A program made the position numbers and the translations under genes. The notes under the pieces were generated by a model, which saw nothing but the letters and a program-made list of their open reading frames with translations, was not told the DNA's origin and searched no databases. From an uncultured bacterium (lineage in GTDB: Bacteria > Abyssobacteria > SURF-5): DNA of 64,000 nt. The stretch covers positions 1 to 64,000 of the forward strand of contig CAZSKP010000026.1 in NCBI GenBank assembly GCA_964607485.1, written 5' to 3'. This document shows positions 4,237-22,165 of this stretch, one piece after another. Each line of letters opens with the position of its first letter. The stretch's first letter is position 1.

Positions 4237-4338
4237 CAGTAGCGGAGAAGAATGACCGCGTGAGTCTGCCATATCGAAAATGCAGATGCTGGCGTACAGT
4301 CACTCCTGATACCTGACGTTTTACGGCGGAAAGGATAT

Positions 4339-5580: not shown

Positions 5581-5712
5581 AGGCATAACGGTTGAAACCC
5601 GACGCTTCCTGAAATGGATTCCTGCATCTTTGGCACGTCGTACCTCGCAAAGACAAATGGGCACAGCGATGCTGCGCCCGTACTTTCTTGTTCGTATTTC
5701 AGAGAAAGCTTC

Positions 5713-6069
5713 TTACAGTTCGTGGGTGCCGACGTGGGTCGGGACTTGGAACATCTCCTCTATCTTGGCTCTGATGCCGTCGATGTTCATCGGGCAATTC
5801 ATGACGGCGGTGGCCTTCTTGACGCATGTGCCGAAATAAATCTCGTCCACTTTCTCGCCCAACTTTTCCAGCACAAGCGTCTGTAGCTGCAGCTTCGGGA
5901 GCACGAGGCCGGGGCAGTCGCCGCAGCTCGTCTTGAACACCAGCCGCATGTCGCCTTTCCCCTCGAACGCGAACGCTTTGTCGTTGAGCGCCTTGTAACA
6001 CTTCGCGCAGCCGACGCAGCTCTCGTCCTGTATCCTCTCGCAATAAACGATGCCAATGTTCTTAGCCAT
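5713..6069 (-). CDS. CGGC-domain metal-binding protein
   Basis: IGIVYC, CVGCAKC, CGDCPG, IYFGTC, CP and GTH motifs; GGAGG 8 nt before ATG 6069. Confidence 0.85.
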   Translation of the reverse strand: MAKNIGIVYCERIQDESCVGCAKCYKALNDKAFAFEGKGDMRLVFKTSCGDCPGLVLPKLQLQTLVLEKLGEKVDEIYFGTCVKKATAVMNCPMNIDGIRAKIEEMFQVPTHVGTHEL

Positions 6070-6134
6070 TACTTTCTCCTCCATGTTCAAGCATTCCTTC
6101 ATCCAGTTTCGTGGGGTGTGCCCGCAGAGTGATA

Positions 6135-6150
6135 TGCAATCGCCTTGCCA
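6135..6150 (-). promoter_or_regulatory. sigma54 -24/-12 promoter for the CGGC gene
   Basis: Minus strand TGGCAAGGCGATTGCA. Confidence 0.75.
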
Positions 6151-6226
6151 TTGTAATTGCTACCGGAAGAGATTTGCAAATCCTCGGCTATCACGGGCTA
6201 GTTCCACCTTTTCCGGGAGCGATATG

Positions 6227-6278
6227 TGTTGCAATTACGCAACATATAGCGCCCCAATTCCGTTGCATGAATGCAACT
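6227..6278. promoter_or_regulatory. Tandem palindromic enhancer sites GTTGC-N6-GCAAC
   Basis: TGTTGCAATTACGCAACA (6227) and CGTTGCATGAATGCAACT (6261), 34 bp apart, upstream of the sigma54 promoter. Confidence 0.65.
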
Positions 6279-6453
6279 TTCCTAACCGCTACTCCTTTTA
6301 TCGACGGGTAGTTTCGAATCTGTGTATCTCTCCAGCCGGCAAATACTTAAACTGTCATCTAACCATTAACGTCGCGGACTGGCATGCGACGTGCTCTGAT
6401 GTCGCATCAGGAGGAAATGGGTCTCACGGGACAACGCAACATGAAGAGGAACG

Positions 6454-7800
6454 ATGACAGAGAAATCGGCGCTTGAGCAGAGAGATATTTCCGCCATTAT
6501 CTTCGATAGCATCAGCGAGGGAGTCTTCACGACCGACCACGACTGCCGCATCACCTCGTTCAACAGCGCGGCGGAGACGATATCGGGTTTCAGCAGGGAG
6601 GAAGCAATAGGGAAGTACTGTTTCGACATATTCCGGACCGACCTCTGCCAGACGCGGTGCGCTCTTCGCAACACCCTCGAAAACGGCAAACCGGTGTCGA
6701 ACGTCCGCGTGACCATCATCACCCGCGAGGGCCGCAAGGTGCCCATCAGCGTAAGCACGACGGTGCTTCGGGACGAGGCGAGACGTTGCATCGGGGCCGT
6801 GGAGTTTTTTCGGGACCTCTCCGAGATCGAGGGTCTCCAGGACAAGGTGTTCAAACTCAACCGGTTCGAAGACCTCGTAAGCTGCAACGAGCGGATGCAA
6901 CGCATCTTCAAGCTGCTGCCCGAGATCGCGGAATCTGAATGCAACGTACTGATCCAGGGTCCGAGCGGTTCGGGGAAGGAACTGCTCGCGCAGGCGCTCC
7001 ACAATCTCAGTCCACGAAAACACAAGTCCTACATCCGCATCAACTGCGCGGCGCTTCCCGAGACGTTGCTGGAATCGGAGCTGTTCGGCTACGTGCGCGG
7101 CGCATTCACCGACGCGAAACGCGACAAGCCGGGGATGTTCTACATGGCCCAGGGAGGCACGCTCCTGCTGGACGAAATCGGGGATATGCCGCTGGCGTTG
7201 CAGGTGAAGCTCTTGAGGGTGCTCAACAATGGCGAATACCAGCCTTTGGGCTCGACCCGAATGCTGCAAACCGACGCTCGCATAATCACCTCCTCCAACC
7301 AGGACATAAAGCGCATGGTCGAGCAGGGCGTTTTTCGAGAGGACTTGTTCTATCGGATCAACGTGATCAACATTCAGATTCCGCCACTTTGCGAACGGTT
7401 GGAGGACTTGCCGCTGCTGATCGAGCATTTCATCCAGCAGTTTCGGACAAAGCGGAAGAAGGACATACGGGGCGTGTCGAACGAAGTGTTGAGGCTACTG
7501 AGGAGGTATGATTTTCCGGGAAACGTGCGGGAGTTGGAGAACGCCGTCGAGCACGCCTTCGTGATATGCAGGGGCAACATCATTGAGCCCGAGCATCTGC
7601 CCGAAAGGATACTCGAGGCGGTTCGCAGTATCGAGGAACGGTCGGGACAGCCGTCCTATGGGCAGAGTTCAGAAGAATCCATAATACGCGAGGCGCTCGT
7701 CCGTAATAGGGGCAACCGCCGCAAGACTGCCGATGAACTGAACATGCATCGCTCCACGTTGTGGAGAAAGATGGAGAAATACGGAATCGCTTCTCCGTGA
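6454..7800 (+). CDS. sigma54-dependent activator, PAS-AAA+-Fis HTH, OrpR-like
   Basis: PAS with C-X8-C-X3-C; GPSGSGKE, ESELFG, GAFTDA and PGNVRELEN motifs; C-terminal HTH; no receiver domain. Confidence 0.9.
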   Translation: MTEKSALEQRDISAIIFDSISEGVFTTDHDCRITSFNSAAETISGFSREEAIGKYCFDIFRTDLCQTRCALRNTLENGKPVSNVRVTIITREGRKVPISVSTTVLRDEARRCIGAVEFFRDLSEIEGLQDKVFKLNRFEDLVSCNERMQRIFKLLPEIAESECNVLIQGPSGSGKELLAQALHNLSPRKHKSYIRINCAALPETLLESELFGYVRGAFTDAKRDKPGMFYMAQGGTLLLDEIGDMPLALQVKLLRVLNNGEYQPLGSTRMLQTDARIITSSNQDIKRMVEQGVFREDLFYRINVINIQIPPLCERLEDLPLLIEHFIQQFRTKRKKDIRGVSNEVLRLLRRYDFPGNVRELENAVEHAFVICRGNIIEPEHLPERILEAVRSIEERSGQPSYGQSSEESIIREALVRNRGNRRKTADELNMHRSTLWRKMEKYGIASP

Positions 7801-7901
7801 ACTCAGGATTCGCAACCCTCGGCCTGCTGCCGGTTGTCCTCGGCGGCTCGGCTGGCGCTCCGCTGGGCGCCTGTTCAGCGGCCGCGTCGGTTCTACCCAT
7901 C

Positions 7902-8447
7902 CTACGCCGGCGTCACGGCGATGCTTATTTCTTCCCATGAACCTTCGGGGAGAGAGAGTTTGTCCAGCAGGAGTATGGCCGACGGGTTAAGATAGTACTG
8001 GTTCGGCCTGTCCGGACCAACGAGAACGACCGGCGCGTTGAACCTGAAGGCGAACTCCTCGATCGGAATGTTGCCGAACGTGATTGCCTTCTCCAGGTGC
8101 GGAATCACGAGCAACTGGTATTCCCGATTCATGAGACACGTCCTGAGTTCTTTCGCGTGCCGGCTCTCCTCGCAGACCTTGAAGCCCACGTCAACGTACT
8201 CACCCAGACACTTGTCGTAATATTCGCGCAGCTTCCTGTCGGTGGCCACGAGAATCTTCTCATCGATTATCTTGCGGCCCTTTCCCAGGGGTTCCGAATA
8301 TTTTTCGTACGGAGACCTCAGGAAATAGAAGATGTTCAGTTGGCATTTGTTTTTGCGAGCGAGGGAAAATGCGAAGTCAAATGCCCAGTCCCCCTTCTCC
8401 GAGAAATGGGCGCACAGTCCCACGCTGTCCATCGCAACGGTAGTCAT
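7902..8447 (-). CDS. Universal stress protein-like protein
   Basis: CAHFSEKGDWAFDFAFSLA start and FNAPVVLV end typical of the USP fold. Confidence 0.7.
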   Translation of the reverse strand: MTTVAMDSVGLCAHFSEKGDWAFDFAFSLARKNKCQLNIFYFLRSPYEKYSEPLGKGRKIIDEKILVATDRKLREYYDKCLGEYVDVGFKVCEESRHAKELRTCLMNREYQLLVIPHLEKAITFGNIPIEEFAFRFNAPVVLVGPDRPNQYYLNPSAILLLDKLSLPEGSWEEISIAVTPA

Positions 8448-8486
8448 CGTATCTTCTCCTTTCTCTATCCGCACTCACGACGACCG

Positions 8487-9443
8487 TTAGAGTTCCTTCA
8501 GAATATCGTCGATGTAATACTTCGAGTACAACGCACTGACCGGATTGTTTGCCAGAGATTTGTCCTTCACGAAAAGGGTGGACGCAGGGGCGTCGCTGTA
8601 CCGGGCAAAGATGCAGTCGCACCCCACGCACAATCCCACGGCAACATTGATGTCTGTTTTCAGCGCATTGAGAACTCTCGCCTGACCTATCGGATTGCAC
8701 ACGATCCCGTTAGACGCCGTGATGAGGTCGGGCTGCGCTCTCCCGCCGACTTTGCAGCACACCGGGCTTACCGAAAAAAAGCGGCGTAGCAACCGCGTGA
8801 GTATTTCCGTCTCTCTGAACATGTCCACGCAGAACGCCACGCCGACGTGCGTGCACTCCATGCCGATACAGTAATAGATGAACTCCGCGACACGGCACAG
8901 CTTGCGGTCGGTTTCCGCCTCTACGTCCATCGTGACTTCCATGGAATGATGAAATTTTGCGTACTGTTCGGCCGGATAAAGTTCGCCGAATCGCGTCGTG
9001 CAGTTCTCGCCCTTGAGACAGATTCGGTCCACGCACTCGACACAGTCGATTCCTGATTCCACCGTTTGCTTTTGCAAAGCCCTTTTTGGCTCGACGTCCG
9101 ACGCTGATTCCCTGCCTTCGGACGCCAAGCCGTACCCGTTCCTGAGACGGCCACTTCCCAGGGCCGCCAGGACCTCCTCGGTCTCTGCAGCTACGTCGTG
9201 GATCACTCGGATTCCGTATGAGTCCGCCTTCTCAATGAATTCCCTGTCGATCGCACCGCAGACGAACAGGTCGATTTCCAGCCCAACTAGTTGCAACAAT
9301 CGCTCCTCTTCGGTCATTCCGGTTGTCTCGACGATCTTTCTCGAGACTTCGCGGTCGTCGAAAAACTGGACGAGCAATGTCTTATCGGAATAAAGACACC
9401 GGGGCGAAACCCGAGATCCAAAGAGCGGAATGGCTACCCTCAC
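8487..9443 (-). CDS. NifB/NifX-family domain fused to DUF1847 Cys-rich domain
   Basis: N-terminal RVAIPLFGSRVSPR..ICGAI-like NifX motif; C-terminal RVAE, AFC, VCCKVG, CNPIGQA, GLCVGCD and VKD DUF1847 motifs. Confidence 0.82.
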   Translation of the reverse strand: MRVAIPLFGSRVSPRCLYSDKTLLVQFFDDREVSRKIVETTGMTEEERLLQLVGLEIDLFVCGAIDREFIEKADSYGIRVIHDVAAETEEVLAALGSGRLRNGYGLASEGRESASDVEPKRALQKQTVESGIDCVECVDRICLKGENCTTRFGELYPAEQYAKFHHSMEVTMDVEAETDRKLCRVAEFIYYCIGMECTHVGVAFCVDMFRETEILTRLLRRFFSVSPVCCKVGGRAQPDLITASNGIVCNPIGQARVLNALKTDINVAVGLCVGCDCIFARYSDAPASTLFVKDKSLANNPVSALYSKYYIDDILKEL

Positions 9444-9564
9444 GACTTTTTTCCCATCTCATTCTCGACGTTGTGAGCTTCGAGCCTACGAGAAAGATGA
9501 AATATTTCGAGGAAGACTCTTTCGCATGTTTCAGCACTTTGCTGATTCGTCGGAAAATCTTTCG

Positions 9565-9579
9565 GCAATAACTATGCCA
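9565..9579 (-). promoter_or_regulatory. sigma54 promoter for the NifX-DUF1847/USP operon
   Basis: Minus strand TGGCATAGTTATTGC. Confidence 0.75.
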
Positions 9580-9858
9580 AGAGTTCTCCTCTCTTCAATC
9601 CTTCATTCCAATGCACAGAGCTTCGCGCTTTTTCTCCATTTCGAGCTTGTCGACCGCATCTGGCGACAGCAGAAACACGCCCGAAGAACGTCGCAGAACG
9701 CGTTGCATGCAACGTCGCGTCGCAACGATGTGCCACAAGAAAGGCGACATTGACGCTCGCTCCGGGACCTGCTATCGGGAATGACGCACCGCAGCAAGTC
9801 CCGAATTTTCCGGCAGTATCGAAGCGCGAATCAGCTTCGCTCCGGTTTGAGGCGAGGG

Positions 9859-9873
9859 TGGCATATTTCTTGC
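9859..9873 (+). promoter_or_regulatory. sigma54 promoter for the qrc-tmc cluster
   Basis: TGGCATATTTCTTGC about 90 nt upstream of qrcA. Confidence 0.78.
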
Positions 9874-9964
9874 CCAAACAGTATTCGGCATCAGCATGAA
9901 ATGACAATCAATCCTTGTGAGGGGACCACGTGTTTGATAGTTGCCGGTTTTGGATGAAAAAATC

Positions 9965-10603
9965 ATGACGGAAAGAAGGATCTCAGTCGGCCAAAAATAT
10001 TTTGCGGGTATCCTCGGTTTTTTCCTGGTCGGCCTGTTGATCTTCCTGTTGCTGGGCTGGTTTGTGTTTCCAAGCCTAATCTATGAAAGGAAGGCGCAGC
10101 CCGTGAATTACAACCCGCCGTTGCATGTGGAGAAGCTGGGCATTACATGCGATACGTGCCACTTCTTCCACGAAGACGGCAGTTGGGCGGGGATTCCCAC
10201 TCTGGAAACGTGTGTGGACTGCCACGCCGAGACAATCGGCGATTCACCCGAGGAAGAGAAGTTCGTCAACAACTATGTCAAGAAGAACAAAGAGGTGAAG
10301 TGGGCGCTATACGTGAGGCAGCCGGAGTGCGTGTCCTTCTCGCATTCTTCACACGTGAGAATGGCCAAGATCGCGTGTGAGACGTGTCACGGGCCGCAGG
10401 GCCATTCCGATGCGACAGAATATCTGGCAAACAGGATTACGAACTACAGCTACGTAGTGTACGATCCCCGCGTTCCCCTCAACGCTTTTACCATCATGAA
10501 CGAGAAGGGGAGCAAGGTGTGGGGAACCATGAGGATGGATGAGTGCGCAGGCTGTCACCGTTCGAGAGGAACGAGCACGGCGTGTTTCATCTGTCACAAA
10601 TAG
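9965..10603 (+). CDS. qrcA: Membrane-anchored pentaheme cytochrome c (QrcA)
   Basis: N-terminal TM; five CxxCH (CDTCH, CVDCH, CETCH, CAGCH, CFICH); operon position. Confidence 0.85.
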   Translation: MTERRISVGQKYFAGILGFFLVGLLIFLLLGWFVFPSLIYERKAQPVNYNPPLHVEKLGITCDTCHFFHEDGSWAGIPTLETCVDCHAETIGDSPEEEKFVNNYVKKNKEVKWALYVRQPECVSFSHSSHVRMAKIACETCHGPQGHSDATEYLANRITNYSYVVYDPRVPLNAFTIMNEKGSKVWGTMRMDECAGCHRSRGTSTACFICHK

Positions 10604-10646
10604 CACGCTGTCCGAAGAAATCTGTGGAGTGAAGGGAAGAGAGACC

Positions 10647-13040
10647 GTGGAAGTCAACCGCAGGACGTTTGTCAAAGGAATGGCCTTCGCCGGGGGAGCC
10701 GCCCTCGGGGTGATGCTGTCGCCTGCTCCCTGGTATCTGATAAGGGATATGGCGTTCTGGACGCAGAACTGGTCATGGGTTCCCGGTCCCGTGCCGGGAG
10801 AGCCTTCGTTCGACAAGACGATCTGCAGGATGTGTGATGGCGGATGCGGTATCAGGATTAGAAAAGTCGATGATCGGCTGGTGCGAATCGATGGAGACTG
10901 CGACCACCCGGTGAACAGAGGCTCGATATGTCCGCTGGGAACAGCGGCCCTTCAAATGCTCTACAGTCCGGCGCGCGTCAAGACCCCACTAAAGCGGTCG
11001 GGCGACCGAGCCAATCCGAAGTGGGAGCCGCTCTCGTGGGAGAAGGCGCTCAAAGAGGTCACCGACAAACTTCGTGCCCTTCGCTCCGCCGGTCGGTCTC
11101 ATTCAGTCGCCTGCATTGCCAGCCCTTCCGATAGCGTAGCCAACGAGCTTTTCGAGCGATTCCTGCAACCGGTCGGCTCTCCGAATTTCATAAGGATGAA
11201 CTCGAAGGCGGACGCCCAAGACATCGTGTATGAGCTCATGTATGGTGGGGAAGGGAAGATCGCCTACGACATCGAGAATGCCCGATGCATCCTCAGCTTC
11301 GGCTGCGACCTTTTTGCCGGATGGGGGGTTCCGGGCCGCATGTACCATGCACAGTCGGTCTGGCTCGACCAGCCGGGCAACGCCGAAACGGAGATAATCC
11401 AGATAGACCCGAGTCTTTCCATCACCGCGGCTAAATCCTCACGGTGGGTGCCCATCACACCGGGGGCCGAGGCCGCCCTGGCTCTGGGCATAGCCCACGT
11501 GTTGATCAGGGACGGCCTCTACGACAAGGCGTTCGTCAAGAATCACTGCTTCGGCTTCGAAAACTGGACCGATCAAAGCGGGAAGAAGGTTGCAGGATTC
11601 AAGTCGGAGGTGCTCTCCCGTTATTCTCCTCAATCGGTGGAGCTGATGGCAAAGGTGTCGGCGAAGGAAATCGAAGAGCTTGCCTACACGTTCGCCGCAA
11701 GCAAGCCGTCGCTCGCGCTCTGCGGGGGAGGCGGCGGCGACCTGTATGCGGACATGTACGCTTTGATGGCCGTTCACAGTCTGAACGCGCTCGTGGGAAA
11801 CATCAACCAGCCAGGTGGCATTCTCAGCCGGTCCGATACTCCGGTCAAGCCGCTGCCGCCGGTGAGTATGGATGAAGAGGCTGTTCGTGGTTACTCGACG
11901 CCCCGGATTGACGAGGCGGGAGGCAGGGAATATCCGTTCACCCGCTCACTGCCCGACAACATCGACGCGCGCGAGGTTGAAGTCCTGTTCGTGCACGAGG
12001 CGAATCCGTATTATGCTCTGTCCGACCAGAAGACCGCCGAAGAAATTTTCGGGAAGATTCCTTACATCGTCAGCCTGTCCTCCTATCTCGACGAAAGCAC
12101 GATGCGTGCCGACCTGATACTGCCGATACCGACACCCTTCGAGCGATGGGACGACCTCGTGAGTGTCCCGGGATTTCAATACCCGGTGTACGACCTGACT
12201 CGCCCCGTTGTCAAACCGCTCTACGACACGAAAAATGCCGGGGACATCGTCATCGAAATCGCGCATCGACTGGGAGGTGCGATTGAGAAATCGTTCCCTT
12301 GGAACAATGTGATTGAAGTCGTCATAGAAAGGGCTCAGGGACTGCACGAATCCAACAAGGGATTGATAGATACGCCTGAAGCCCTCGCGAGAGTGAGTGA
12401 GGGAGAACTCGCGGCCGCCTTTGAAGGGCAAGAATATCCTTCATTCTCGGCGTTCTGGAGCGACCTCGTGCAGCACGGCTGCTGGTTCGACCCGGTCTAC
12501 AACACCGGCGATCCGACAAATATCCTCAAGACTCCCAGCGGAAAGTTCGAGTTCTTCAGTCAACGCTTGCAGAGTGCATTCGGATTCAGCGAGGCGGCAG
12601 CGTGCATGCCACATTACACCGAGCCCGTGCCCAATCCAGAGGGCTTCGATTTGATTATTATGCCCGTCGAGCTTGTCATGATGGCTGGAGACGGGCTCGG
12701 CACACCGCCGCTGTTGATCAAGCAATTGAGGGACAACGAGCTTGCCGGAAAAGAGATGTTTGTCCAAATAAATCCGATAACCGCCATGTATCAAGGCTTG
12801 AAGGACGGCGACGCCGTGATTCTGGAATCGTCGCGGGGCAAGGCGAAGGTGCGGATACATACATTTGCCGGCGTGCGTGAAGGGGTAGTGCTGATTCCTC
12901 TCGGCTTTGGTCATACGGCCTATGACCAGTTTCTGCGAAACAAGGGCGTGAACGCCCACCAGATGCTCGATGTCGGGACCGACAGGCTCAGCGGACTGCC
13001 GGCCCGATGGTCTACGCCGGGGAAACTGAGAAGAGCATAA
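10647..13040 (+). CDS. qrcB: Molybdopterin oxidoreductase-like subunit (QrcB)
   Basis: Tat motif NRRTFVK; PAPW..WTQNW N-terminus; CxxCxxxC..C; DMSO-reductase fold motifs; GTG start inferred. Confidence 0.85.
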   Translation: MEVNRRTFVKGMAFAGGAALGVMLSPAPWYLIRDMAFWTQNWSWVPGPVPGEPSFDKTICRMCDGGCGIRIRKVDDRLVRIDGDCDHPVNRGSICPLGTAALQMLYSPARVKTPLKRSGDRANPKWEPLSWEKALKEVTDKLRALRSAGRSHSVACIASPSDSVANELFERFLQPVGSPNFIRMNSKADAQDIVYELMYGGEGKIAYDIENARCILSFGCDLFAGWGVPGRMYHAQSVWLDQPGNAETEIIQIDPSLSITAAKSSRWVPITPGAEAALALGIAHVLIRDGLYDKAFVKNHCFGFENWTDQSGKKVAGFKSEVLSRYSPQSVELMAKVSAKEIEELAYTFAASKPSLALCGGGGGDLYADMYALMAVHSLNALVGNINQPGGILSRSDTPVKPLPPVSMDEEAVRGYSTPRIDEAGGREYPFTRSLPDNIDAREVEVLFVHEANPYYALSDQKTAEEIFGKIPYIVSLSSYLDESTMRADLILPIPTPFERWDDLVSVPGFQYPVYDLTRPVVKPLYDTKNAGDIVIEIAHRLGGAIEKSFPWNNVIEVVIERAQGLHESNKGLIDTPEALARVSEGELAAAFEGQEYPSFSAFWSDLVQHGCWFDPVYNTGDPTNILKTPSGKFEFFSQRLQSAFGFSEAAACMPHYTEPVPNPEGFDLIIMPVELVMMAGDGLGTPPLLIKQLRDNELAGKEMFVQINPITAMYQGLKDGDAVILESSRGKAKVRIHTFAGVREGVVLIPLGFGHTAYDQFLRNKGVNAHQMLDVGTDRLSGLPARWSTPGKLRRA

Positions 13041-13799: not shown

Positions 13800-13851
13800 C
13801 GTCACGCGGAACGTTGCGACGGCATAAGGTTAAAGAGACGAGACGCGTAAG

Positions 13852-15078
13852 ATGACATCAGCAAATGAAGTTCCGAAGTTGAAGCGATGTTCCCAGCGAA
13901 GGTTTCTCTTGTGGCTGGCTTTCTGGGGATTGCTGCTGGCATGGGGACTGTACGCGGCATTCCTCTGCCTTTTCAAAGGTCTGAATCAGACCGGGATGAA
14001 TAACTACTTCGTGTTCGGCCTGTGGATCACGGTTGACCTGGCCATCATCGCCCTGGGGGCGGGGGCCTTCTTCAGCGGATTCTTGTTTTACATACTCAGG
14101 GTCGATTACCTCAAAGACCTGATAGGCGCGGCCGTGGTCATCGGGTTCATCTGCTACAGCGGGGCCATAGGAATGCTGACCATCGACATCGGACAGCCGC
14201 TGCGGGGTTATTTCAGTTTCTGGCACGCCAACGTGCACTCCATGCTGACGGAGGTCATCTTCTGCATCACGTGCTACCTGTTTGTGCTTACGGTCGAGTT
14301 TGTGCCGCTGGTCGCCGAGCACAAAAAGATCAGCGACTTCCCGCTATTCAAGTACATGGGCGAAAACCTGCACGGCATAATGGCCGTCTTCGCGCTTGTC
14401 GGCACGTTCCTGTCCTTTTTCCATCAGGGCTCGCTCGGCGGGATGTTCGGCGTCCTGTTCGCGCGACCGTTCGCCTATCGAGCCGGCATAGCGATTTGGC
14501 CGTGGACGTTTTTCCTGTTCATATTGTCCGCCATTGCATCCGGACCGGCGCTGACGACACTGGTCGTGTGGACGACCCAGAAGGTCACGCGGCGTCAGCT
14601 TGTTCGCAGAACCACCTTGTCCAAGCTGGCCAAGCTGTCCGCCGTATTGTTCACGGTTTATTTAATTCTCAAATCAGCCGACACGGTCTATTGGGCGAAC
14701 GTGACGGCTCCTGAGATGGGATTCAAGTTTACGAGTTTTTATAAGGGGCCGTATGGAATGGAGCTGCTGTTCTTCGAGCTGTTCGTGTTCGGACTGCTCC
14801 CGGCCATCCTGCTCCTGATTCCGAAAGCGCGCGATTATGACCTTTCTCTGGTTCTTGGATGCCTGTTCATTTGCATCGGCGTCGTTCTCAACCGATTCGC
14901 AATAACCGTTCAGACGCTCTCGATACCGGTTTTGCCGTTCGAGAAATTCATGGCGTATAAGCCGACCTGGCAGGAATGGGCCATCTCCGCGGCGGTTGTC
15001 GGGTACGGGGTGATTTTGTATTCGTTGTCGTATCGCTATCTCCACCTGTTTCCGCGGGAGCGCGAACTGAACGCATGA
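13852..15078 (+). CDS. qrcD: NrfD/PsrC-family membrane quinone-binding subunit (QrcD)
   Basis: About 10 TM; FGLWI, DIGQPLR, SMLTEV and HQGSLG motifs. Confidence 0.88.
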   Translation: MTSANEVPKLKRCSQRRFLLWLAFWGLLLAWGLYAAFLCLFKGLNQTGMNNYFVFGLWITVDLAIIALGAGAFFSGFLFYILRVDYLKDLIGAAVVIGFICYSGAIGMLTIDIGQPLRGYFSFWHANVHSMLTEVIFCITCYLFVLTVEFVPLVAEHKKISDFPLFKYMGENLHGIMAVFALVGTFLSFFHQGSLGGMFGVLFARPFAYRAGIAIWPWTFFLFILSAIASGPALTTLVVWTTQKVTRRQLVRRTTLSKLAKLSAVLFTVYLILKSADTVYWANVTAPEMGFKFTSFYKGPYGMELLFFELFVFGLLPAILLLIPKARDYDLSLVLGCLFICIGVVLNRFAITVQTLSIPVLPFEKFMAYKPTWQEWAISAAVVGYGVILYSLSYRYLHLFPRERELNA

Positions 15079-15108
15079 ACTCTTTGGATACGAAGGAGCC
15101 AACGAACC

Positions 15109-15351
15109 ATGCTGCCAACGACATTTGAGTTTCGATGGGATGCAGGCCACATGATCTTCTTCGGAGTCTTCTATGCGGTGGTGATAGTGGTTTTCACAAG
15201 CCTGTTTTTTGTGGTGGCGAAATCAATCACCGACGTTTACAGGAACATGAAGACCGGCAGGCGACAGGTGGACGTTTCTGAACGCGAGGACGAAACCGGC
15301 CAACTGGAAGCGGAAGTCGCAGCGAAAACTTTAACGGAGCCTTCAGGGTAA
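15109..15351 (+). CDS. Small single-TM protein
   Basis: RBS AAGGAG; FEFRWDAGHMIFFG then a hydrophobic helix; in-operon position. Confidence 0.65.
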   Translation: MLPTTFEFRWDAGHMIFFGVFYAVVIVVFTSLFFVVAKSITDVYRNMKTGRRQVDVSEREDETGQLEAEVAAKTLTEPSG

Positions 15352-15390
15352 GAGCGCATCGGACATTACACTCACAGCTCAGAAAGAAGG

Positions 15391-16719
15391 ATGGATGGCC
15401 ACATGCAAAGCGTAGGGACAGCTAAAGCGGAAGCGAAAGAAGTTCTGCCCGGCAAAGACGGTTGGGACCGGGAGACCAGAGAGAAATTGGTTGCGGATAT
15501 TTCGACGCTGCGGGAAAAATTCGCGGAAGTGCACGAGTTTGCCGTCAGCGGGGATGGTGAAAGAATCGCCGTTCCGGTCAAGACGGAGGAGGGCCAGTTC
15601 ACCGTCTGCGTGAACGGTGAGCCGTGGGAACAGGCCTTCGAAAAAGTATGGTACCTGAAGTTCGGACCGGACGGCAGGTTGACGGCGCTCGTCAGGGCCG
15701 ACGACGAATGGACCGTCGCCGTTGAAGGCGAATGCTGGCAGGAAAAGTTCGAGTACGCATGGAACACCACGTTCAGCCGGGACGGCAGCGCAATCGCCGC
15801 GCAGGCAAAGAGGGTAATGGACTACCTGATAGTTGTGGACGGAGTTGTTTGGAACACTGCCTTCGTTTCCACCAGGGGACTCGCCCTCAGCCCCGGCGGC
15901 GAGAAGGCGGCCGCGGTTGTGCAGCCCGTGCCGTTAAAGGAAGCGGACATCTTCGGGTTTCTGGCGGGTACATGGACCGTCGCCGTCAACGACAAACCGT
16001 GGGACAGAAACTTCATCAACGTGTACTCTCCCACATTCAGTCCCGATGGCCGACACGTCGCCGCACAGGTCCGGCTCGGAATCTGCGAATATACCATTGC
16101 CAAAAATGGGCGGCCGTGGGGCCAGACGTTCGGCTGCGTGTGGGAACCCTGCTTCAGACCTCAATCGAATTCCATCGTCGCTCCCGTCAGGACCGGCGAA
16201 GGCTGGACATTGGCCGAGGATGGTCAACTGATATGGAACGGACGCTACGACCAATTATGGCGGCCAAAAATCAGCCCCGACGGAAACCGGATCGCCGCCG
16301 TCGCGGCTCCCAGCTTCGGGAAATGGACCATCGCTGTCGATGACGCGCCGTGGAAGAAGACATACAGCGATTGCGTGCTCGAGCCGTTCTTTTCAAGCGA
16401 TTCCCGGCACGTCGCCGCCATCGTGAAGGAAAACAATCGCTGGACAATCGCTGTGGATGGCGTCCCATGGACGGAAACCTTCGATATGATCTGGGACCCG
16501 GCGTTCGACCCGACGGGGGAATATGTCGTCGCGAAGGCCGAATGGAATGGGCGGTTCTGCATTGTTGTCAACGGCAGGATTTGGAGGCGCACGTTCGACG
16601 CGATGTGGGAACCCGTTTTCAGCCATAACGGGAAAATGCTCCTCGTCAGGTCGGTCGAGGACGGGAAGTACTACCGCCGTATCATCGACCTCCCGGATAT
16701 TCTGGATAATCTACGGTAA
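15391..16719 (+). CDS. tmcD: Trp-rich beta-propeller protein (TmcD)
   Basis: Repeated WTVAVxGxPW...PxFSPDG units; adjacent to tmcC and tmcB. Confidence 0.8.
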   Translation: MDGHMQSVGTAKAEAKEVLPGKDGWDRETREKLVADISTLREKFAEVHEFAVSGDGERIAVPVKTEEGQFTVCVNGEPWEQAFEKVWYLKFGPDGRLTALVRADDEWTVAVEGECWQEKFEYAWNTTFSRDGSAIAAQAKRVMDYLIVVDGVVWNTAFVSTRGLALSPGGEKAAAVVQPVPLKEADIFGFLAGTWTVAVNDKPWDRNFINVYSPTFSPDGRHVAAQVRLGICEYTIAKNGRPWGQTFGCVWEPCFRPQSNSIVAPVRTGEGWTLAEDGQLIWNGRYDQLWRPKISPDGNRIAAVAAPSFGKWTIAVDDAPWKKTYSDCVLEPFFSSDSRHVAAIVKENNRWTIAVDGVPWTETFDMIWDPAFDPTGEYVVAKAEWNGRFCIVVNGRIWRRTFDAMWEPVFSHNGKMLLVRSVEDGKYYRRIIDLPDILDNLR

Positions 16720-16731
16720 GGAGAATCGGAC

Positions 16732-17379
16732 ATGTATGAGTTCGCGAGCGGCCCGCTGGTATGGTTGGCGTTCATCGTTTTTTTCGGGGGCTCCGCATAC
16801 CGGCTGGTCTGGATGTTTCTGACCGCGAGGAAGGACAGGGTCGTCTATCCATACATGAGTCTGAAATACGGCCTGCGCTCCTTGTCACACTGGGTCGTTC
16901 CGTTCGCCAGCCTAAATATGAGAATGAGACCGGTCATGACCGTGGTCACATTCATGTTCCACATCTGCCTCATATTCACGCCCATCTTTCTCCTGGCGCA
17001 CAACGAACTGCTTCGGCAGGCGTGGGGCGTGAGTCTGTGGAGTCTCCCGCCCGAGTTGGCAGACATAATGACGGTGGCCGTCATCATTGGGGGCGCCTTC
17101 TTCATCGGAAGACGCCTCAGGCTGCCCGAAGTGAGAAATGTCACGACGTACTCCGACTACCTTCTGGTCGCTATCGTGCTCGCGCCGTTCGTGACGGGTT
17201 TCATCGCATATCACCAGTGGTTCGCCTACAAGACGATGGTGACTATTCATATCGTCACGGGAGCCATCATGCTGATGGCGATCCCGTTCACCCGGTTGAG
17301 CCACATGCTGTACTTCTTCTTCACGAGAGCGTACATGGGCTCTGAATTCGGGTTTGTACGCAACGCGAGGGATTGGTAA
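16732..17379 (+). CDS. tmcC: NarI-like cytochrome b membrane subunit (TmcC)
   Basis: GPLVW, FHI..AH, H..GAI and IPFTRLSH heme b motifs. Confidence 0.85.
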   Translation: MYEFASGPLVWLAFIVFFGGSAYRLVWMFLTARKDRVVYPYMSLKYGLRSLSHWVVPFASLNMRMRPVMTVVTFMFHICLIFTPIFLLAHNELLRQAWGVSLWSLPPELADIMTVAVIIGGAFFIGRRLRLPEVRNVTTYSDYLLVAIVLAPFVTGFIAYHQWFAYKTMVTIHIVTGAIMLMAIPFTRLSHMLYFFFTRAYMGSEFGFVRNARDW

Positions 17380-17402
17380 CCCTCTTAAAATGGAGGTTGA
17401 AC

Positions 17403-18785
17403 ATGGCCGAGAAGAATGCCGGTCAAGCCGTCGCGGAAGCGATACCGGATGAATCCAAGAGCAGGCTGACCCCCGAACAAATGGTAAAGGACCAGGGGTT
17501 GGACGAAACCATCAAGAAGCTGACCCCCGAACAAATAGAGCAAACCATAAACAAGGTTTTGAAAGGAGAGGGCGCGCGGCTCAGAGTGTACCTCGACACG
17601 TGCGTCCATTGCGGGCTGTGCTCCGAGGCGTGCCACACGTACCTCTCCCGCGACAGAGACCCGCAATATTCTCCCGTCGGCAAGGTCAAGAACACATTGT
17701 GGGAAATGGTCAAGCGGAAGGGCAAGGTTGACGCGGAGTTCATCAAGAATGCATCTCGGATAGTATTCACAGAATGCGCCGTGTGCCGCCGATGCAGCAT
17801 GTACTGTCCGTTTGGGATTGACATCGCATATCTGCTGATAGTCGTGCGCCGAATTCTTAACCTGCTCTACGTGGTCCCCGCGTACCTCCAAGATACCACC
17901 AACAGCCACGCCGCCACGATGAACCAGATGTGGGTGCAGGAGGACGAGTGGATCGACACGCTCCAGTGGCAGGAGGAAGAGGCTCAGATGGAGATGGCCA
18001 AGGCCAGGATTCCCCTGGAAAAAGAAGGAGCCGAAGTAATGTACTCGGTCATCGCTCCCGAGCCGAAGATCCTCGCTCAGCTCCTGAATTACATGTCGCA
18101 GTTCATGACGGTCGCCGGGGTGGATTGGACCATGCCGGCAACCGACGGCTGGGACAACAGCAACATGGCGATGTACTCGGGCGACTTCGAGACCATGGCG
18201 CGCGTCGAGCGGCTCCACTACGAAACGGCCATGCGGCTGAAGGTGAAGAAGATCGTCATGGGCGAGTGCGGCCATGCGTTCAGGGGCGCGGCCTACGACG
18301 GCCCCAAGTGGCTTTCCTGGCGGTTCCCGCCGATTCCGCTGATTCACGCCATCCAGTGGTACTATGAGCTCATCAAGAGCGGGAGAATCAAGATAGCCAA
18401 GAAATATCCCGAACCCATAACGGTCCAGGACCCGTGCAACGTCGTCCGAGGCAAGGGCCTGCATAAGATGCTTCGCTACATCATGAACGCTGCGTGCGAG
18501 GACTTCAGGGACGTTGACCCGAGGTTTGAGCACAACTACTGCTGCATGGCCGGCGGCGGCACGGTCAACTGCGGCCCCCCATGGACGCGCTCCAGAATGG
18601 TGAGCAACCGGGTCAAGGCGGAGCAACTCTCCGCCACCGGAGCCAAGGTGGTCGTCACCCCTTGCCACAACTGCCACAGCGGCATCGAGCAGATCGTCAG
18701 CTTCTACAAGCTCGACATGCACGTAAAATTTTTCGCCGAGATACTGGTCGAATGCATGGAAGTTCCCCAACACTTAAAGGTGTAA
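17403..18785 (+). CDS. tmcB: HdrD/DsrK-like Fe-S CCG protein (TmcB)
   Basis: CVHCGLCSEAC, CAVCRRCSMYCP, ECGH, QDPC, CCMAGGG and PCHNC motifs. Confidence 0.87.
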   Translation: MAEKNAGQAVAEAIPDESKSRLTPEQMVKDQGLDETIKKLTPEQIEQTINKVLKGEGARLRVYLDTCVHCGLCSEACHTYLSRDRDPQYSPVGKVKNTLWEMVKRKGKVDAEFIKNASRIVFTECAVCRRCSMYCPFGIDIAYLLIVVRRILNLLYVVPAYLQDTTNSHAATMNQMWVQEDEWIDTLQWQEEEAQMEMAKARIPLEKEGAEVMYSVIAPEPKILAQLLNYMSQFMTVAGVDWTMPATDGWDNSNMAMYSGDFETMARVERLHYETAMRLKVKKIVMGECGHAFRGAAYDGPKWLSWRFPPIPLIHAIQWYYELIKSGRIKIAKKYPEPITVQDPCNVVRGKGLHKMLRYIMNAACEDFRDVDPRFEHNYCCMAGGGTVNCGPPWTRSRMVSNRVKAEQLSATGAKVVVTPCHNCHSGIEQIVSFYKLDMHVKFFAEILVECMEVPQHLKV

Positions 18786-18788
18786 AGA

Positions 18789-20348
18789 ATGGATAGGATA
18801 CCTTTCAGACGAGCTCACGGATTGTTCTCGATAGTCCTGCTTCTTGCGGCGCTCTCGGGCGGCGCGGGGTGCGGCTGGCCCGCAGAGGGAACCCACTTCG
18901 AAATGACCCAGCCCCCAATCGCAGAGGAGGCGGAGCAGAACCTGCTGGAAAATCGGGTGATGATGGCTCGCCCGGAGGCGTTCGCCGAACTCGAGCGGCC
19001 GCCGGTAGTGTTCGACCATCGCCGGCATACGGAAGCGTTGAAGGAAGAGGGCTGCCGCGGCTGCCATCCGGCCGATGGGCAAGGGAAAGTGGATTATCAG
19101 TACGTCGAGTGGCGAGAGCTTCCGGATAGGCGCGCGCTCATAGACGCGTATCACGAAAAATGCATGAAGTGTCATTATGAAGGCGTCACGGAGGAGGGTA
19201 AGAAAGTCCGCGCCTTGACTTGCGGGGAATGCCATCTCGAAACGATGGCATACAAAACGCTGGAATGGTACCCTGCGACTTTCGACCATTTCCACCACAT
19301 AGACGCAATGGAAAAAGGGTGCGACACGTGCCATCACCAATACGATGAGGAGCGGAAGAAACTGGTCTACGAAAAAGGCCAGGAAGAGGCCTGTGGCAAA
19401 TGCCACAAAGACACGCCGGAGGGAAATAGGGACTCGCTTCGAAAAGAGGGTCACACAAGCTGCATCGGCTGCCACGAGGAGAAGTACCTGGCGGGCGAAA
19501 TCAAGCTCGATCCCTACGATTGCCGGCAGTGTCACAAGCCCGAGGCGAAGCCTCTACCCGAAACGAGAGAGATCGTCGCCCGAATCTATCAGGCGCAGCC
19601 GACGGAACTGTTAATCAGCTATCCCGGCTCGATACTGCCGCCGGTTCCGTTCGACCACGAAAAGCACGACCCGAAGAAAGAGTGTAGCAAGTGCTGCCAC
19701 CATTTTCACGTGAGAACGCTCGTGGCGGCGGACACGCGCTTCCAAGAAACCGCCGACGCCTGCCGGCAGTGTCACGAGCAGGCCGAGGTTTCGGCAAGAG
19801 CCGGCTGCGTGCAAGCGGACAAGATTTACCACGACGCCGAGTCGCCCAACAGTTGTGTCGGGTGTCACACGGAGCAAAATAAGGAAGTGACTAAGGAAGA
19901 CGAAAAGAGGCCAGTGAGTTGTAAGGGATGCCACACGGGCGACGTGACCGCCGTCCAGCCCGTCGAAATGGAAAAGGCCGGACCGCCCGAGGAAGGGCCA
20001 GAGACATACATCATAGCCCGGATGTCGAGAAAGTACCTGCCCGTGAAGTTTCCCCATGCGTCGCACACGAAGATGATCACCAACTGCGATTCCTGCCATC
20101 ATCACGGCCCGGAGAAGGAAAAGCCGACGTGCAACACATGCCACGGCGCTCCGTTGGATTTCATGAAGCTGACCAAGCCGAGACTCATCAGCGCCTACCA
20201 TCGTATGTGCATGGGATGCCACAGGGGCATGGGGACCGGCCCTGTTGCGTGTACGAAATGTCACGAGGAGCGCGAGACCATCTATCCGACCGGCCAACGC
20301 CTGCAGACGACGAGGGCGGCGGAACCCCCCTCGCCGCCCGAGTTGTAA
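18789..20348 (+). CDS. High-molecular-weight cytochrome c3-family protein, about 15 hemes (HmcA-like)
   Basis: Signal peptide; 14 CxxCH plus CSKCCH; four c3-type FxHxxH domains. Confidence 0.82.
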   Translation: MDRIPFRRAHGLFSIVLLLAALSGGAGCGWPAEGTHFEMTQPPIAEEAEQNLLENRVMMARPEAFAELERPPVVFDHRRHTEALKEEGCRGCHPADGQGKVDYQYVEWRELPDRRALIDAYHEKCMKCHYEGVTEEGKKVRALTCGECHLETMAYKTLEWYPATFDHFHHIDAMEKGCDTCHHQYDEERKKLVYEKGQEEACGKCHKDTPEGNRDSLRKEGHTSCIGCHEEKYLAGEIKLDPYDCRQCHKPEAKPLPETREIVARIYQAQPTELLISYPGSILPPVPFDHEKHDPKKECSKCCHHFHVRTLVAADTRFQETADACRQCHEQAEVSARAGCVQADKIYHDAESPNSCVGCHTEQNKEVTKEDEKRPVSCKGCHTGDVTAVQPVEMEKAGPPEEGPETYIIARMSRKYLPVKFPHASHTKMITNCDSCHHHGPEKEKPTCNTCHGAPLDFMKLTKPRLISAYHRMCMGCHRGMGTGPVACTKCHEERETIYPTGQRLQTTRAAEPPSPPEL

Positions 20349-20362
20349 CCTGAGAGGCATCT

Positions 20363-22165
20363 ATGCAACAAGCCGAATGGGAAAAATGGCTGCGCGACCG
20401 GCTCTTTGAAAATGTGCCGTGCTGTATCGCGATAATAGACCGGCACTACAACATCGTCGAAAACAACAGCGCCTTCCGGTCCGTCTTTGGTGAAGGTAAG
20501 GGACGGAAGTGCTACCAGATCTACAAGGGTGGGACCGAACGCTGCAGCGACTGCATGGCCTCCCAGACGTTCGCTGACGGCATGCCGCGCGTGAACGACG
20601 AAGTCGGTATAGACCACATGGGCCGCACGGCTCATTATCTGGTACATGTGATACCAATCACGAGTGCGGACGGTTCCATTCCATACATTGCGGAACTCTC
20701 CACCGACGTGACGGAAATCAAGCGTGTGCAGCGGGAATATCAGACGCTGTTCGAGCAGGTCCCGTGCTTTGGAATGGTTGTAAACAGAGACTTCCGCATT
20801 GTGCGCGCAAACGAGCGGCTACGCCAAATGTTCGGCGAATGCACGGGCGAGCACTGCTACAAAATACTGAAGCATCGGTGGGAAAAATGCGATGATTGTC
20901 CGGCAGAGCTGACCTTTGCGGACGGCCAGTCCCACACCTCGAACCAGGTGGGAATAAACAAGCACGGCGAACGGACCGATTACCTCGTCAACACCTCTCC
21001 TCTCCTCATGGGGAACCGTCACGTCACCCACGTGATTGAGATGGCGCTCGACCTGACCGAGACAAGGAAACTCGAAACTCAACTCGCCAGAGAGCATTTT
21101 CTCCGCGAGAGCCTGATTGAGAACTCCTTCGATGGAGTTGTGGCAGCGGACCATGAGGGTAGGGTGGTCATTCTTAACTCGGCGGCCGAATCCATGTTGG
21201 GATACAAGGCAGCGGACTTATTGAACAAAGAACCGCCCGATTCGTTCTTCCCCGAGGAGTTTCTGCGCATAATGAAATCGAAGGACGGTGAATGCGTGCT
21301 GCCCGAGTTCGCAATTCCCGCGCGTGACGGCGAACCGATTCCGGTACGGTTTTCCGGAGTCGCCTTGAAACATGGCGACGAATTTATCGGGAGCGCGGCC
21401 TTCCTGCAGGACCTGCGCGAGGTCAAGCATCTCGAAAGAGACAAAATCGAGGCCGAGCGTTTCGCGGCCGTCGGACAAACGGTTGCCGGGCTCGCCCACG
21501 GAATCAAGAACATCCTGACGGGGCTCGAAGGTGGAATGTATGTGTTTAACTCCGGCATGCAGAAAGACAATCGGGAACGCATCGAGCAGGGCTGGCAAAT
21601 GCTCAACCGGAACATCGAGCGTGTCTCGTCGCTTGTGAAGAAGCTGCTCAGCTTTTCCAAGGGCCGTACACCCGAGGTGAAACTTACCGACCCCGGGCGA
21701 CTGCTCGTCGAGGTGGTCGCACTTTTCGAAGACATAGCGTCGCAGCATAAGATCGAGCTCAGAGCGGAGACAGACGACAAGGTGGCTCCGGCCGTTCTTG
21801 ACCCCGAGGCGATTCATGAGTGCCTCGCCAATCTTCTTTCCAACGCCATCGATGCCTGCAAAACGAGCGATAATGTTCCCTGCAGCGTCGTCGCGCGGTG
21901 CGTTGAGGAAAACGGCTGCCTGGTATTTGAGGTGAAGGACTCAGGATGCGGCATGGACGCCGCAACCAAGCGGCGTGTGTTCAGCGCGTTCTTTACCACG
22001 AAGGAAAAGGAAGGCACCGGGCTGGGACTTCTCATCACCCGCAGAATCGTGCAGGAACACGGCGGCAGGATCGCGATAGACTCAGAACCCGGCAAGGGCT
22101 CGCTCTTCAGACTGATATTCCCTCGGGATAGGCTGCCCAGTCTAAGGACGAAACAACCGGAATAG
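20363..22165 (+). CDS. Cytoplasmic PAS-PAS-PAS histidine kinase
   Basis: LAHGIKN H-box; NAIDA, DSGCG and GTGLGL motifs; two PAS with C-X10-C-X2-C. Confidence 0.88.
   Translation: MQQAEWEKWLRDRLFENVPCCIAIIDRHYNIVENNSAFRSVFGEGKGRKCYQIYKGGTERCSDCMASQTFADGMPRVNDEVGIDHMGRTAHYLVHVIPITSADGSIPYIAELSTDVTEIKRVQREYQTLFEQVPCFGMVVNRDFRIVRANERLRQMFGECTGEHCYKILKHRWEKCDDCPAELTFADGQSHTSNQVGINKHGERTDYLVNTSPLLMGNRHVTHVIEMALDLTETRKLETQLAREHFLRESLIENSFDGVVAADHEGRVVILNSAAESMLGYKAADLLNKEPPDSFFPEEFLRIMKSKDGECVLPEFAIPARDGEPIPVRFSGVALKHGDEFIGSAAFLQDLREVKHLERDKIEAERFAAVGQTVAGLAHGIKNILTGLEGGMYVFNSGMQKDNRERIEQGWQMLNRNIERVSSLVKKLLSFSKGRTPEVKLTDPGRLLVEVVALFEDIASQHKIELRAETDDKVAPAVLDPEAIHECLANLLSNAIDACKTSDNVPCSVVARCVEENGCLVFEVKDSGCGMDAATKRRVFSAFFTTKEKEGTGLGLLITRRIVQEHGGRIAIDSEPGKGSLFRLIFPRDRLPSLRTKQPE

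Follow-up and report, generated by a model that had tools for sequence, protein, structure and literature searches.

When do anaerobic bacteria build the complexes that carry electrons from the periplasm to quinones or from the periplasm to the cytoplasm? Little is known about this, and the question is posed in concrete form by a locus of an uncultured bacterium in which genes for Qrc, Tmc and a large multihaem cytochrome lie near the gene of a sigma-54 enhancer-binding protein (EBP, the activator). The locus is part of the window, by which we mean the whole 64-kb stretch of DNA analysed here (positions 1-64,000 of contig CAZSKP010000026.1, assembly GCA_964607485.1; all coordinates below are in window numbering). 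The answer that we favor, and that we hold to be probable if well short of certain, is that the EBP would sense through an iron-sulfur (Fe-S) PAS domain, act from GTTGC sites and drive four sigma-54 promoters, among them the promoter of a qrc-tmc operon.

The gene at the center of this proposal is the following.

6454-7800, plus strand: sigma-54 EBP, built as PAS, AAA+ and Fis-type helix-turn-helix (HTH)

Pfam places the PAS domain at residues 16-124, Sigma54_activat at 143-308, then AAA_lid_14, and HTH_8 at 407-443; no Response_reg domain was found in this protein by Pfam. The AAA+ module contains a Walker A motif (GPSGSGKE), a Walker B motif (LLLDEI) and a GAFTDA loop. In the PAS domain three cysteines are spaced as C56-X8-C65-X3-C69 and accompanied by D58 (translation of 6454-7800: GKYCFDIFRTDLCQTRCALRN; GKYCFDIFRTDLCQTRC). 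A preceding interpretation made from the DNA letters, hereafter the sequence-only reading, had described a C-X8-C-X3-C PAS domain and the lack of a receiver domain, and both are borne out by translation and Pfam. The closest precedent is OrpR (DVU2106) of Desulfovibrio vulgaris Hildenborough, which the accessible part of its description presents as a PAS-AAA+-HTH sigma-54 activator that needs C52, C61 and C65 for signal sensing, with a conserved D/E54 nearby as a possible fourth ligand (PMC8359166). According to the same text, its PAS [4Fe-4S]2+ cluster converts to [3Fe-4S]1+, and its regulon as mapped by chromatin immunoprecipitation sequencing consists of two orp operons only, with GGGCGYRTTTTGCGCCC as the DNA site (PMC8359166). 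The sequence-only reading had cited OrpR as a [4Fe-4S]-PAS activator of orp operons, in agreement with this account. Domain order, cysteine spacing and acidic residue of the OrpR family are all present in the EBP. The C-X8-C-X3-C motif is kept in 34 of 34 related activators, a count that is partly biased because one of the six search peptides spanned the first cysteine. By analogy with OrpR, a redox-labile [4Fe-4S] cluster is most likely bound by the PAS domain of the EBP, its ligands being C56, C65, C69 and perhaps also D58.

What might such an activator control? We scanned the window for the exact pattern TGGCA-N6-TTGC and compared the result with shuffled sequence. Four matches were found where 0.45 were expected, an approximately ninefold enrichment, and only one of 100 shuffles reached four. 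Three of the four fall in this locus, each of them intergenic and oriented toward its gene. These promoter elements and the putative enhancers between them are as follows.

6136-6150, minus strand: -24/-12 element for the CGGC gene, TGGCAAGGCGATTGC; exact pattern match, specific to this genome
6228-6277, no strand assigned: predicted upstream activating sequence 1, from a pattern scan; two GTTGC-N6-GCAAC dyads (6228-6243 and 6262-6277) with centers 34 bp apart
6380-6395, plus strand: -24/-12 element for the EBP gene itself, TGGCATGCGACGTGCT; weaker match
9565-9579, minus strand: -24/-12 element for the operon of the NifX-DUF1847 and universal-stress-protein (USP)-like genes, TGGCATAGTTATTGC; exact pattern match
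9690-9726, no strand assigned: predicted upstream activating sequence 2; four half-sites in the order GTCGC-N7-GTTGC-N2-GCAAC-N8-GCAAC
9780-9797, no strand assigned: conserved block AATGACGCAyCGC..AA, between the half-sites and the qrcA promoter, about 95 bp ahead of the site where qrcA is predicted to start
9859-9873, plus strand: -24/-12 element for qrcA, TGGCATATTTCTTGC; exact pattern match

The clear boxes that the sequence-only reading had placed before the CGGC gene, the NifX-DUF1847-USP genes and qrcA are thus recovered as exact matches, and its weaker box before the activator was found as well. The elements of the EBP gene, the NifX-DUF1847 gene and qrcA are kept in five loci of relatives that could be read across them (L005-L008 and G004). 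In these five loci the EBP promoter takes the form TGGCAY-N5-GTGCW about 75 bp before the start codon, and a partial locus (L009) has TGGCA-N6-CTGCA at the same place. The features expected of sigma-54 promoters are present: GG at -24, TGC at -12, a fixed spacing, an rpoN gene in the genome and a putative enhancer about 80-180 bp away. Downstream of the fourth exact match in the window (58614-58628, minus strand) no gene is obviously oriented to be its target; glnA (59526-60938) lies nearby on the opposite strand.

The GTTGC half-sites are rare. The whole 4.7 Mb genome contains just five GTTGC-N6-GCAAC dyads, two of which form region 1. Genome-wide, at least three GTTGC/GCAAC half-sites fall within 60 bp at 47 start positions; only in the two regions of this locus are such clusters flanked on either side by sigma-54-type sites no more than 350 bp away, and one other has a single such site. 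Alignments of the two intergenic regions from five genomes have mean column identities of 56% and 52%, and the invariant columns are those of the -24/-12 elements, the two dyads, the GTYGC-N7-GTTGC-N2-GCAAC core and a TGACGCA..GC block at 9780-9797. The dyad cores of region 1 are unchanged in the five aligned genomes and recur in G004 and L009, in the latter again 34 bp apart. In region 2 (GTCGC at 9690, GTTGC at 9702, GCAAC at 9709 and 9722) the core is the same in the five aligned genomes, G004 reads GTTGC-N7-GTTGC-N2-GCAAC, and the fourth half-site is degenerate in relatives. Both regions have the extended half-site yGTTGCr in common. The gene of a 77% identical paralogue of the EBP (L004) has no respiratory or qrc neighbor and is still preceded by a sigma-54 site and a perfect GTTGC-N6-GCAAC dyad, which argues that the dyad is the operator of the EBP itself. 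Of the earlier claim that GTYGC/GCRAC sites cluster in both intergenic regions, the clustering holds, and a single shared architecture does not, as the spacing differs.

Two further elements were noticed in these regions. A single half-site (GCAACATG, 6436-6443) lies in the predicted 5′ leader of the EBP gene, downstream of its promoter; it is kept in four of the five aligned genomes and might act in autorepression. An Rfam scan of 5600-10100, a range that includes the block at 9780-9797, found nothing. In an informal comparison with consensus sequences, IHF, Rex and a sigma-70 -35 element were all poor fits to this block.

The link between regulator and respiratory genes extends beyond one genome. 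A search for related loci gave 32, the nearest of which are labeled Ca. Abyssobacteria (SURF_17), "Poribacteria" or uncultured bacterium. Four of them (L005-L008, EBP 83-86% identical) have the order EBP, USP-like and NifX-DUF1847 genes on the minus strand, then qrcABCD-orf80-tmcDC and onward, and contig C111 of G004 contains the entire cluster through the cytochrome. The USP-fold gene adjoins the activator in all five of these loci, and a homologue of orf80 with 55-84% identity occupies the same position in L005-L007 and G004. Co-occurrence was assessed in ten genomes of the taxonomic family, this genome included. Seven genomes have an EBP orthologue (83-86% identity), and it is these seven that also have TmcD and QrcD above cut-off; the remaining three, one of them just 77% complete, have no EBP orthologue and neither TmcD nor QrcD above cut-off. 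Five of the seven have the EBP and qrc-tmc together on a single contig. Of the other two, G003 has a contig that breaks off within qrcD, and G009 has the EBP at the end of one contig and qrc-tmc on another. Linkage of the regulator to qrc-tmc had been set beforehand as a point on which the proposal could fail; it holds in relatives, with adjacency wherever the contigs allow it.

The genome encodes a second qrcABCD copy (contig C41, 24232-29326, minus strand; locus L037), whose products are 57% (QrcA), 58% (QrcB), 76% (QrcC) and 80% (QrcD) identical to those of the window copy. Each of the seven activator-bearing genomes contains two QrcD matches above cut-off. Neither a sigma-54 site nor a cluster of GTTGC half-sites was found upstream of the C41 copy.

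What the qrcA promoter would deliver depends on the genes behind it, which we assigned with Pfam and, for the Qrc, Tmc and Hmc subunits, with the equivalog cut-offs of NCBIfam.

9941-15078, plus strand: qrcABCD, four subunits by NCBIfam equivalog models
9941-10603, plus strand: qrcA, open reading frame (ORF) from 9941 with likely ATG at 9965; five CxxCH motifs; 212 bits against a cut-off of 180
10539-13040, plus strand: qrcB; 487 bits against 440
13041-13799, plus strand: qrcC; 401 bits against 400
13852-15078, plus strand: qrcD; 589 bits against 570
15109-15351, plus strand: orf80, small predicted membrane protein of 80 aa between qrcD and tmcD, recognized by position and conservation
15391-16719, plus strand: tmcD; NCBIfam 530 bits against 440
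16732-17379, plus strand: tmcC; NCBIfam 309 bits against 240
17373-18785, plus strand: tmcB; NCBIfam 703 bits, slightly under the cut-off of 735; the HmcF model scores far lower (373)
18789-20348, plus strand: multihaem cytochrome c of 519 aa in the TmcA position; 14 CxxCH and one CxxxCH
20363-22165, plus strand: soluble histidine kinase; three PAS domains, of which both PAS1 and PAS2 contain C-X10-C-X2-C

Scans with Pfam and NCBIfam gave no family match for orf80. Since gaps between plus-strand genes do not exceed 53 bp across 9941-22165 and a terminator scan found no convincing plus-strand terminator in this range (counts at shuffle level), it is plausible that the stretch of roughly 12 kb from qrcA to the PAS kinase is one long operon. 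The four qrc genes follow the order known from Qrc, the menaquinone reductase of sulfate reducers; the differences are that this is a second copy in its genome and that it is apparently cotranscribed with tmc under a predicted sigma-54 promoter. The transmembrane complex Tmc is suggested by TmcD and TmcC above cut-off and TmcB slightly below. TmcA of the known Tmc complex is a tetrahaem cytochrome. Here, by contrast, the order is D-C-B-cytochrome, the cytochrome has 519 residues and 14-15 haem motifs, and the genes are joined with qrc and a PAS kinase in one predicted operon. The cytochrome scores 252 bits with the HmcA model (cut-off 400) and 133 bits over four stretches with the TmcA model (cut-off 114). 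Hmc is resembled in this HmcA-like cytochrome and in the homology of TmcC and TmcB to HmcE and HmcF, but hmcB, hmcC and hmcD genes are missing apart from the Qrc subunits. We considered an Hmc complex and rejected it on the HmcA score, the higher scores of the TmcC and TmcB models over those of HmcE and HmcF, and the lack of separate hmcB-D genes. Judged by these family scores, the cluster is best read as Qrc plus a Tmc with a high-molecular-weight HmcA-like cytochrome and not Hmc; the "Hmc" in the supercluster of the sequence-only reading finds no support beyond the HmcA-like cytochrome next to tmcDCB.

The remaining predicted targets are the following.

5713-6069, minus strand: CGGC-domain protein gene, 118 aa from ATG 6069 (longest ORF to 6102); Pfam CGGC 59 bits against a cut-off of 27
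7902-8447, minus strand: gene of a divergent USP-fold protein; 181 aa from M10 of an ORF ending at 8474
8487-9443, minus strand: NifX-like domain (residues 1-105) fused to DUF1847 (163-290); 16 cysteines; DUF1847 110 bits

The NifX-DUF1847 gene followed by the USP-fold gene forms a two-gene minus-strand unit that is convergent with the EBP gene. NifX (PF02579) scores 15 bits in the product of 8487-9443, which is under the Pfam cut-off; among 120 homologues listed, 33 have PF02579 as well. Aligned with the genome's own orp-type NifX protein, the domain reaches a probability of 94.6% in hhalign. Foldseek matches the predicted structure to PH0822 (E 8.5e-9, target TM 0.85) and also to NafY, NifX and, at rank 23, the orange protein of D. 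gigas. The predicted structure and the profile comparison together confirm a NifX/NafY/orange-protein fold for the N-terminal domain. The USP-fold protein has no Pfam match (Usp, PF00582, E = 0.3); its AlphaFold2 model (pLDDT 85.8) has USPs as top Foldseek matches with E about 5e-5, TM about 0.5-0.6 and 15% identity, so that the label denotes a predicted fold only. The names given to these genes from the letters have therefore fared unequally: DUF1847 stands by Pfam and NifX by profile and fold, and USP has a fold match with no Pfam match.

For the CGGC gene the most likely start is ATG 6069, preceded by a GGAGGAG ribosome site, rather than 6102. The gene was not seen in the loci of relatives L005-L008 or G004, and only a 33% identical gene was found in L031. 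It lies in a stretch of low GC content (4001-6100, 0.47 compared with about 0.56-0.60) together with a 413-aa ORF without a family (4339-5580), and neither of the two is found beside the activator in close relatives. The absence from relatives and the low GC content make the CGGC gene look like a recent recruit, and 4001-6100 like a recent insertion that gained a sigma-54 promoter. Its membership in the regulon, as first proposed, keeps the exact promoter and loses the status of a conserved unit, the gene being genome-specific. Another low-GC island (54001-56500, 0.41) contains three ORFs without a Pfam match (54181-54912, 55268-55744 and 55741-56454).

Is the activator then simply OrpR? No match to the OrpR motif GGGCGYRTTTTGCGCCC within three mismatches was found in the window. 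The genome encodes two further full-length paralogues with the Cys3-PAS motif. One, on contig C57 (53% identical), is divergent from an operon of Nitro_FeMo-Co, DUF5320 and MinD-Fer4 genes, which is an orp-type context. The other, on contig C39 (49%), is divergent from a DsrK-like/NarI-like/Fe-S/NrfD-cytochrome set, which is followed by a 62% identical copy of the kinase. Both the window EBP and the C57 paralogue adjoin a NifX-family gene. We computed an IQ-TREE phylogeny of 38 rows (34 Cys3-PAS EBPs and four other EBPs of the genome; D. vulgaris OrpR itself was left out), with support given as ultrafast bootstrap/SH-aLRT. The window EBP falls in a clade with 100/100 support and the C57 copy in a clade with 100/99; the two clades are sisters at 97/88, and the C39 copy lies outside both. 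Two other members of the C57 clade (L008b and L013) are also orp-linked, and it is by gene context that this clade is equated with that of OrpR. The phylogeny suggested at the outset thus returned a distinct clade, sister to the orp-linked one, in a tree without OrpR among its rows.

Where did the window clade come from? In L008 and L009 the qrc-type EBP is immediately preceded by an orp-like operon, made up of a NifX-family gene and two MinD-Fer4 genes (L008, 449-6948; L009, 1166-6319), so that orp genes stand between an orp-type and a qrc-type EBP; in L008 the orp-type paralogue is seen on the far side of the operon. In L012 a member of the window clade is divergent from orp-like genes. Because orp genes adjoin both types of EBP in L008 and L009, and given the arrangement in L012, these gene orders suggest that a local (tandem) duplication of an OrpR-type gene beside an orp cluster gave rise to the window EBP. 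By clade and gene context the window EBP is a paralogue within the OrpR family and not an orthologue: it lies elsewhere than at an orp operon and the OrpR site is missing. The epithet "OrpR-like" is accordingly apt for domain order, cysteine spacing and acidic residue, and fails as a statement of orthology. Like OrpR, the EBP gene is flanked by its predicted sigma-54 target promoters, has a NifX-family gene among the predicted targets and appears to have a local regulon. Unlike OrpR, it is associated with GTTGC half-sites, and its predicted targets are qrc-tmc, the NifX-DUF1847/USP-like genes, the CGGC gene and its own gene. The hosts differ as well: OrpR comes from Desulfobacterota, whereas the nearest named relatives here are labeled Ca. 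Abyssobacteria (Hydrogenedentota).

The kinase at the end of the predicted operon has its own cysteine motifs (C50/C61/C64 and C165/C176/C179, plus an upstream cysteine). When 18 kinases linked to such activators at other loci were examined, all 18 had a C-X10-C-X2-C motif in a PAS domain, and the kinase of the window may be a second cofactor-binding sensor. Its Cys-rich PAS domains liken it to Fe-S PAS sensor kinases of the NreB type, in which we take the motif spacing to be different. A comparable arrangement occurs in a separate clade of EBPs (100/100), from records labeled Desulfomonilaceae, Syntrophaceae or Thermodesulfobacteriota, which are 42-46% identical and have a GAFTGA loop. Their genes are followed by a receiver-domain protein (REC), a sensor kinase, tmcD-tmcC-tmcB, a multihaem cytochrome and an Fe-S protein. 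An exact sigma-54 element precedes the REC-kinase-tmc operon in ten of 14 such loci, about 250 bp beyond the stop codon of the EBP gene. As far as gene order and promoter pattern can tell, this independent clade shows the same control logic. The kinases of L017-L035 (for example L022, 12164-14500) are membrane sensors with an N-terminal CxxCH and could be haem-c sensors; in L022 Pfam finds a sensor domain before HAMP.

Other members of the group stand beside other modules. In L011 and L012, which belong to the window clade, the neighbors are a NifX-DUF1847 gene, a kinase and a DsrK/NarI/Fe-S/NrfD set. In L010, of the same clade (a SURF_17 record; 11469-18119, minus strand), a 77% paralogue adjoins an HdrA/HdrC/HdrB-like set, after which come a Cys-PAS kinase and a receiver protein. 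In all, such activators are seen beside Qrc-Tmc, Tmc, DsrMK/NrfD-cytochrome-like and Hdr-like modules. From this we venture a tentative generalization, on which we would not yet rely: Cys3-PAS activators may form a family that spans phyla and whose members serve as dedicated redox switches of electron-transfer modules of the membrane and CCG-domain types, usually paired with a kinase that has C-X10-C-X2-C in its PAS domains, and the NifX-DUF1847, USP-fold and CGGC proteins may be carriers of cofactors or clusters for the induced complexes. If this were true, the orp regulon of OrpR would be one specialization among several.

For the locus in the window we envisage the following mechanism. By analogy with OrpR, the PAS domain with a reduced [4Fe-4S] cluster would release or gate the AAA+ ATPase. 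The Fis-type HTH would bind the GTTGC half-sites at 6228-6277 and 9690-9726, and looping of the DNA from these enhancers, about 80-180 bp upstream, would activate the promoters. The first of these would belong to the EBP's own gene and provide positive autoregulation, the second to the genome-specific CGGC gene, the third to the NifX-DUF1847/USP-like operon and the fourth to the 12 kb operon that runs from qrcABCD through orf80, tmcDCB and the cytochrome to the PAS kinase. The cell would then make the Tmc-coupled second copy of Qrc only when the redox state is suitable, which probably means reducing, and along with it Cys-rich metal-cluster proteins that may act in maturation.

Several observations weigh against this circuit. 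The promoter of the CGGC gene is not conserved. A search of sequencing runs listed none of RNA for this DNA. The C39 paralogue has no recognizable sigma-54 site in its divergent intergenic region, so that a respiratory complex nearby need not imply such a promoter. C-X8-C-X3-C occurs in 27 of the 150 best PAS representatives, which marks a broad modular class to which the EBP triad is a match at the level of the motif only; these 150 were the best of 86,501 hits in a whole-library phmmer search with the PAS domain, a search swamped by generic multi-PAS proteins. Members of the tmc-linked Desulfobacterota clade mostly lack the acidic residue at +2, where Lys is usual. The geometry of the two enhancers differs, region 1 being made of N6 dyads and region 2 of a GTTGC-N2-GCAAC palindrome with flanking direct repeats; it is not obvious how one mode of dimer binding would suit both, and region 2 might belong to another protein. 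The invariant block at 9780-9797 may be the site of a second regulator. The genome codes for roughly 29 sigma-54 activators, and a conserved PAS kinase ends the predicted operon, with no receiver domain in the EBP, which leaves part of the control unaccounted for. Spacing, block, number of activators and kinase would all suit an arrangement in which the sigma-54 promoters are real and the EBP controls its own and the CGGC gene only; another regulator, recognizing GTTGC-N2-GCAAC or the TGACGCA block and perhaps tied to the kinase, would wholly or jointly drive NifX-DUF1847 and qrc-tmc. We judge this arrangement quite unlikely. The shared yGTTGCr half-site speaks against it, as does the fact that only these two regions in the genome cluster half-sites with sigma-54 sites. 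EBP orthologue and qrc-tmc moreover keep company in the same genomes, and the cluster encodes no receiver-domain activator.

The nature of the signal can be doubted even if the regulon is right. The cysteine triad may sense by thiol chemistry (disulfide, persulfide or polysulfide) or through another metal or cofactor, since just three cysteines are conserved and, in the accessible part of its description, the fourth ligand is unknown even in OrpR. The genes aprA and qmoC and a DsrC-family gene in this genome make sulfur species plausible signals, and the prevalent Lys at +2 in the tmc-linked clade points the same way. Against these points stand a spacing identical to that of OrpR, an acidic residue in the same place and the position of the window clade as sister to the orp-linked clade, and we consider sensing of this kind unlikely without calling it far-fetched. 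Far less probable is that the EBP is a plain OrpR orthologue with the NifX-DUF1847 operon as its orp operon and qrc-tmc as a passenger. A NifX-family gene is indeed among the predicted targets, as for OrpR, and window-clade members directly adjoin orp-like genes in L008, L009 and L012. Such an identity is contradicted by the separate 53% copy at an orp-type operon, by two distinct and well-supported clades and by the lack of GGGCGYRTTTTGCGCCC. Finally, we find it barely credible that the -24/-12 and half-site matches are due to chance and that the cluster is transcribed from sigma-70 promoters. Weak sigma-70-like matches do exist near 9934-9963 and 6179-6150, at about the rate in shuffled sequence, but the exact sigma-54 sites are enriched and concentrated here, and the sites keep position and orientation across genomes though their flanks have diverged. 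The reading that we prefer therefore remains the one in which the EBP, through a predicted Fe-S PAS domain and GTTGC sites, would drive all four promoters.

The metabolic setting is unusual. This genome, 97.5% complete, gave no dsrA match above cut-off (best 28 bits), in agreement with a published note on Ca. Abyssubacteria metagenome-assembled genomes that have sat and aprAB without dsrAB; in the accessible text of that paper the words qrc, tmc and sigma never occur. On contig C34, TmcB-, QrcC- and QrcD-like tblastn matches adjoin a DsrC match. In the searchable literature (subscription-only papers lie outside it) we found no account of qrc or tmc being controlled by a sigma-54 or OrpR-like circuit, and the surmise that this arrangement had not been described before is upheld to that extent. 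Regulation of Qrc appears there as a predicted Rex regulon only, qrcABCD of D. alaskensis G20 being among the predicted Rex targets in the accessible part of PMC4045070, and nothing was found on the regulation of Tmc. A term search in the accessible text of the D. vulgaris sigma-54 regulome paper gave no occurrence of qrc or tmc.

What appears to be new, then, is that a paralogue of the OrpR family has probably been redirected to a Qrc-Tmc operon, and that another phylum has a parallel case; motifs, promoters and gene linkage support the core of this proposal. The locus offers a concrete circuit for the question raised at the beginning: one sensor with a precedent for its cofactor, defined DNA sites with predicted binding, and four promoters. 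OrpR, the only characterized Fe-S sigma-54 activator, has relatives that are apparently aimed at respiration and not at the orange-protein complex. A lineage outside the classical sulfate reducers has two copies of Qrc, one of them tied to Tmc, which bears on the role of these complexes in organisms without canonical DsrAB. The similar gene arrangement found in Desulfomonilaceae and Syntrophaceae provides a route to experiments in cultivable relatives.

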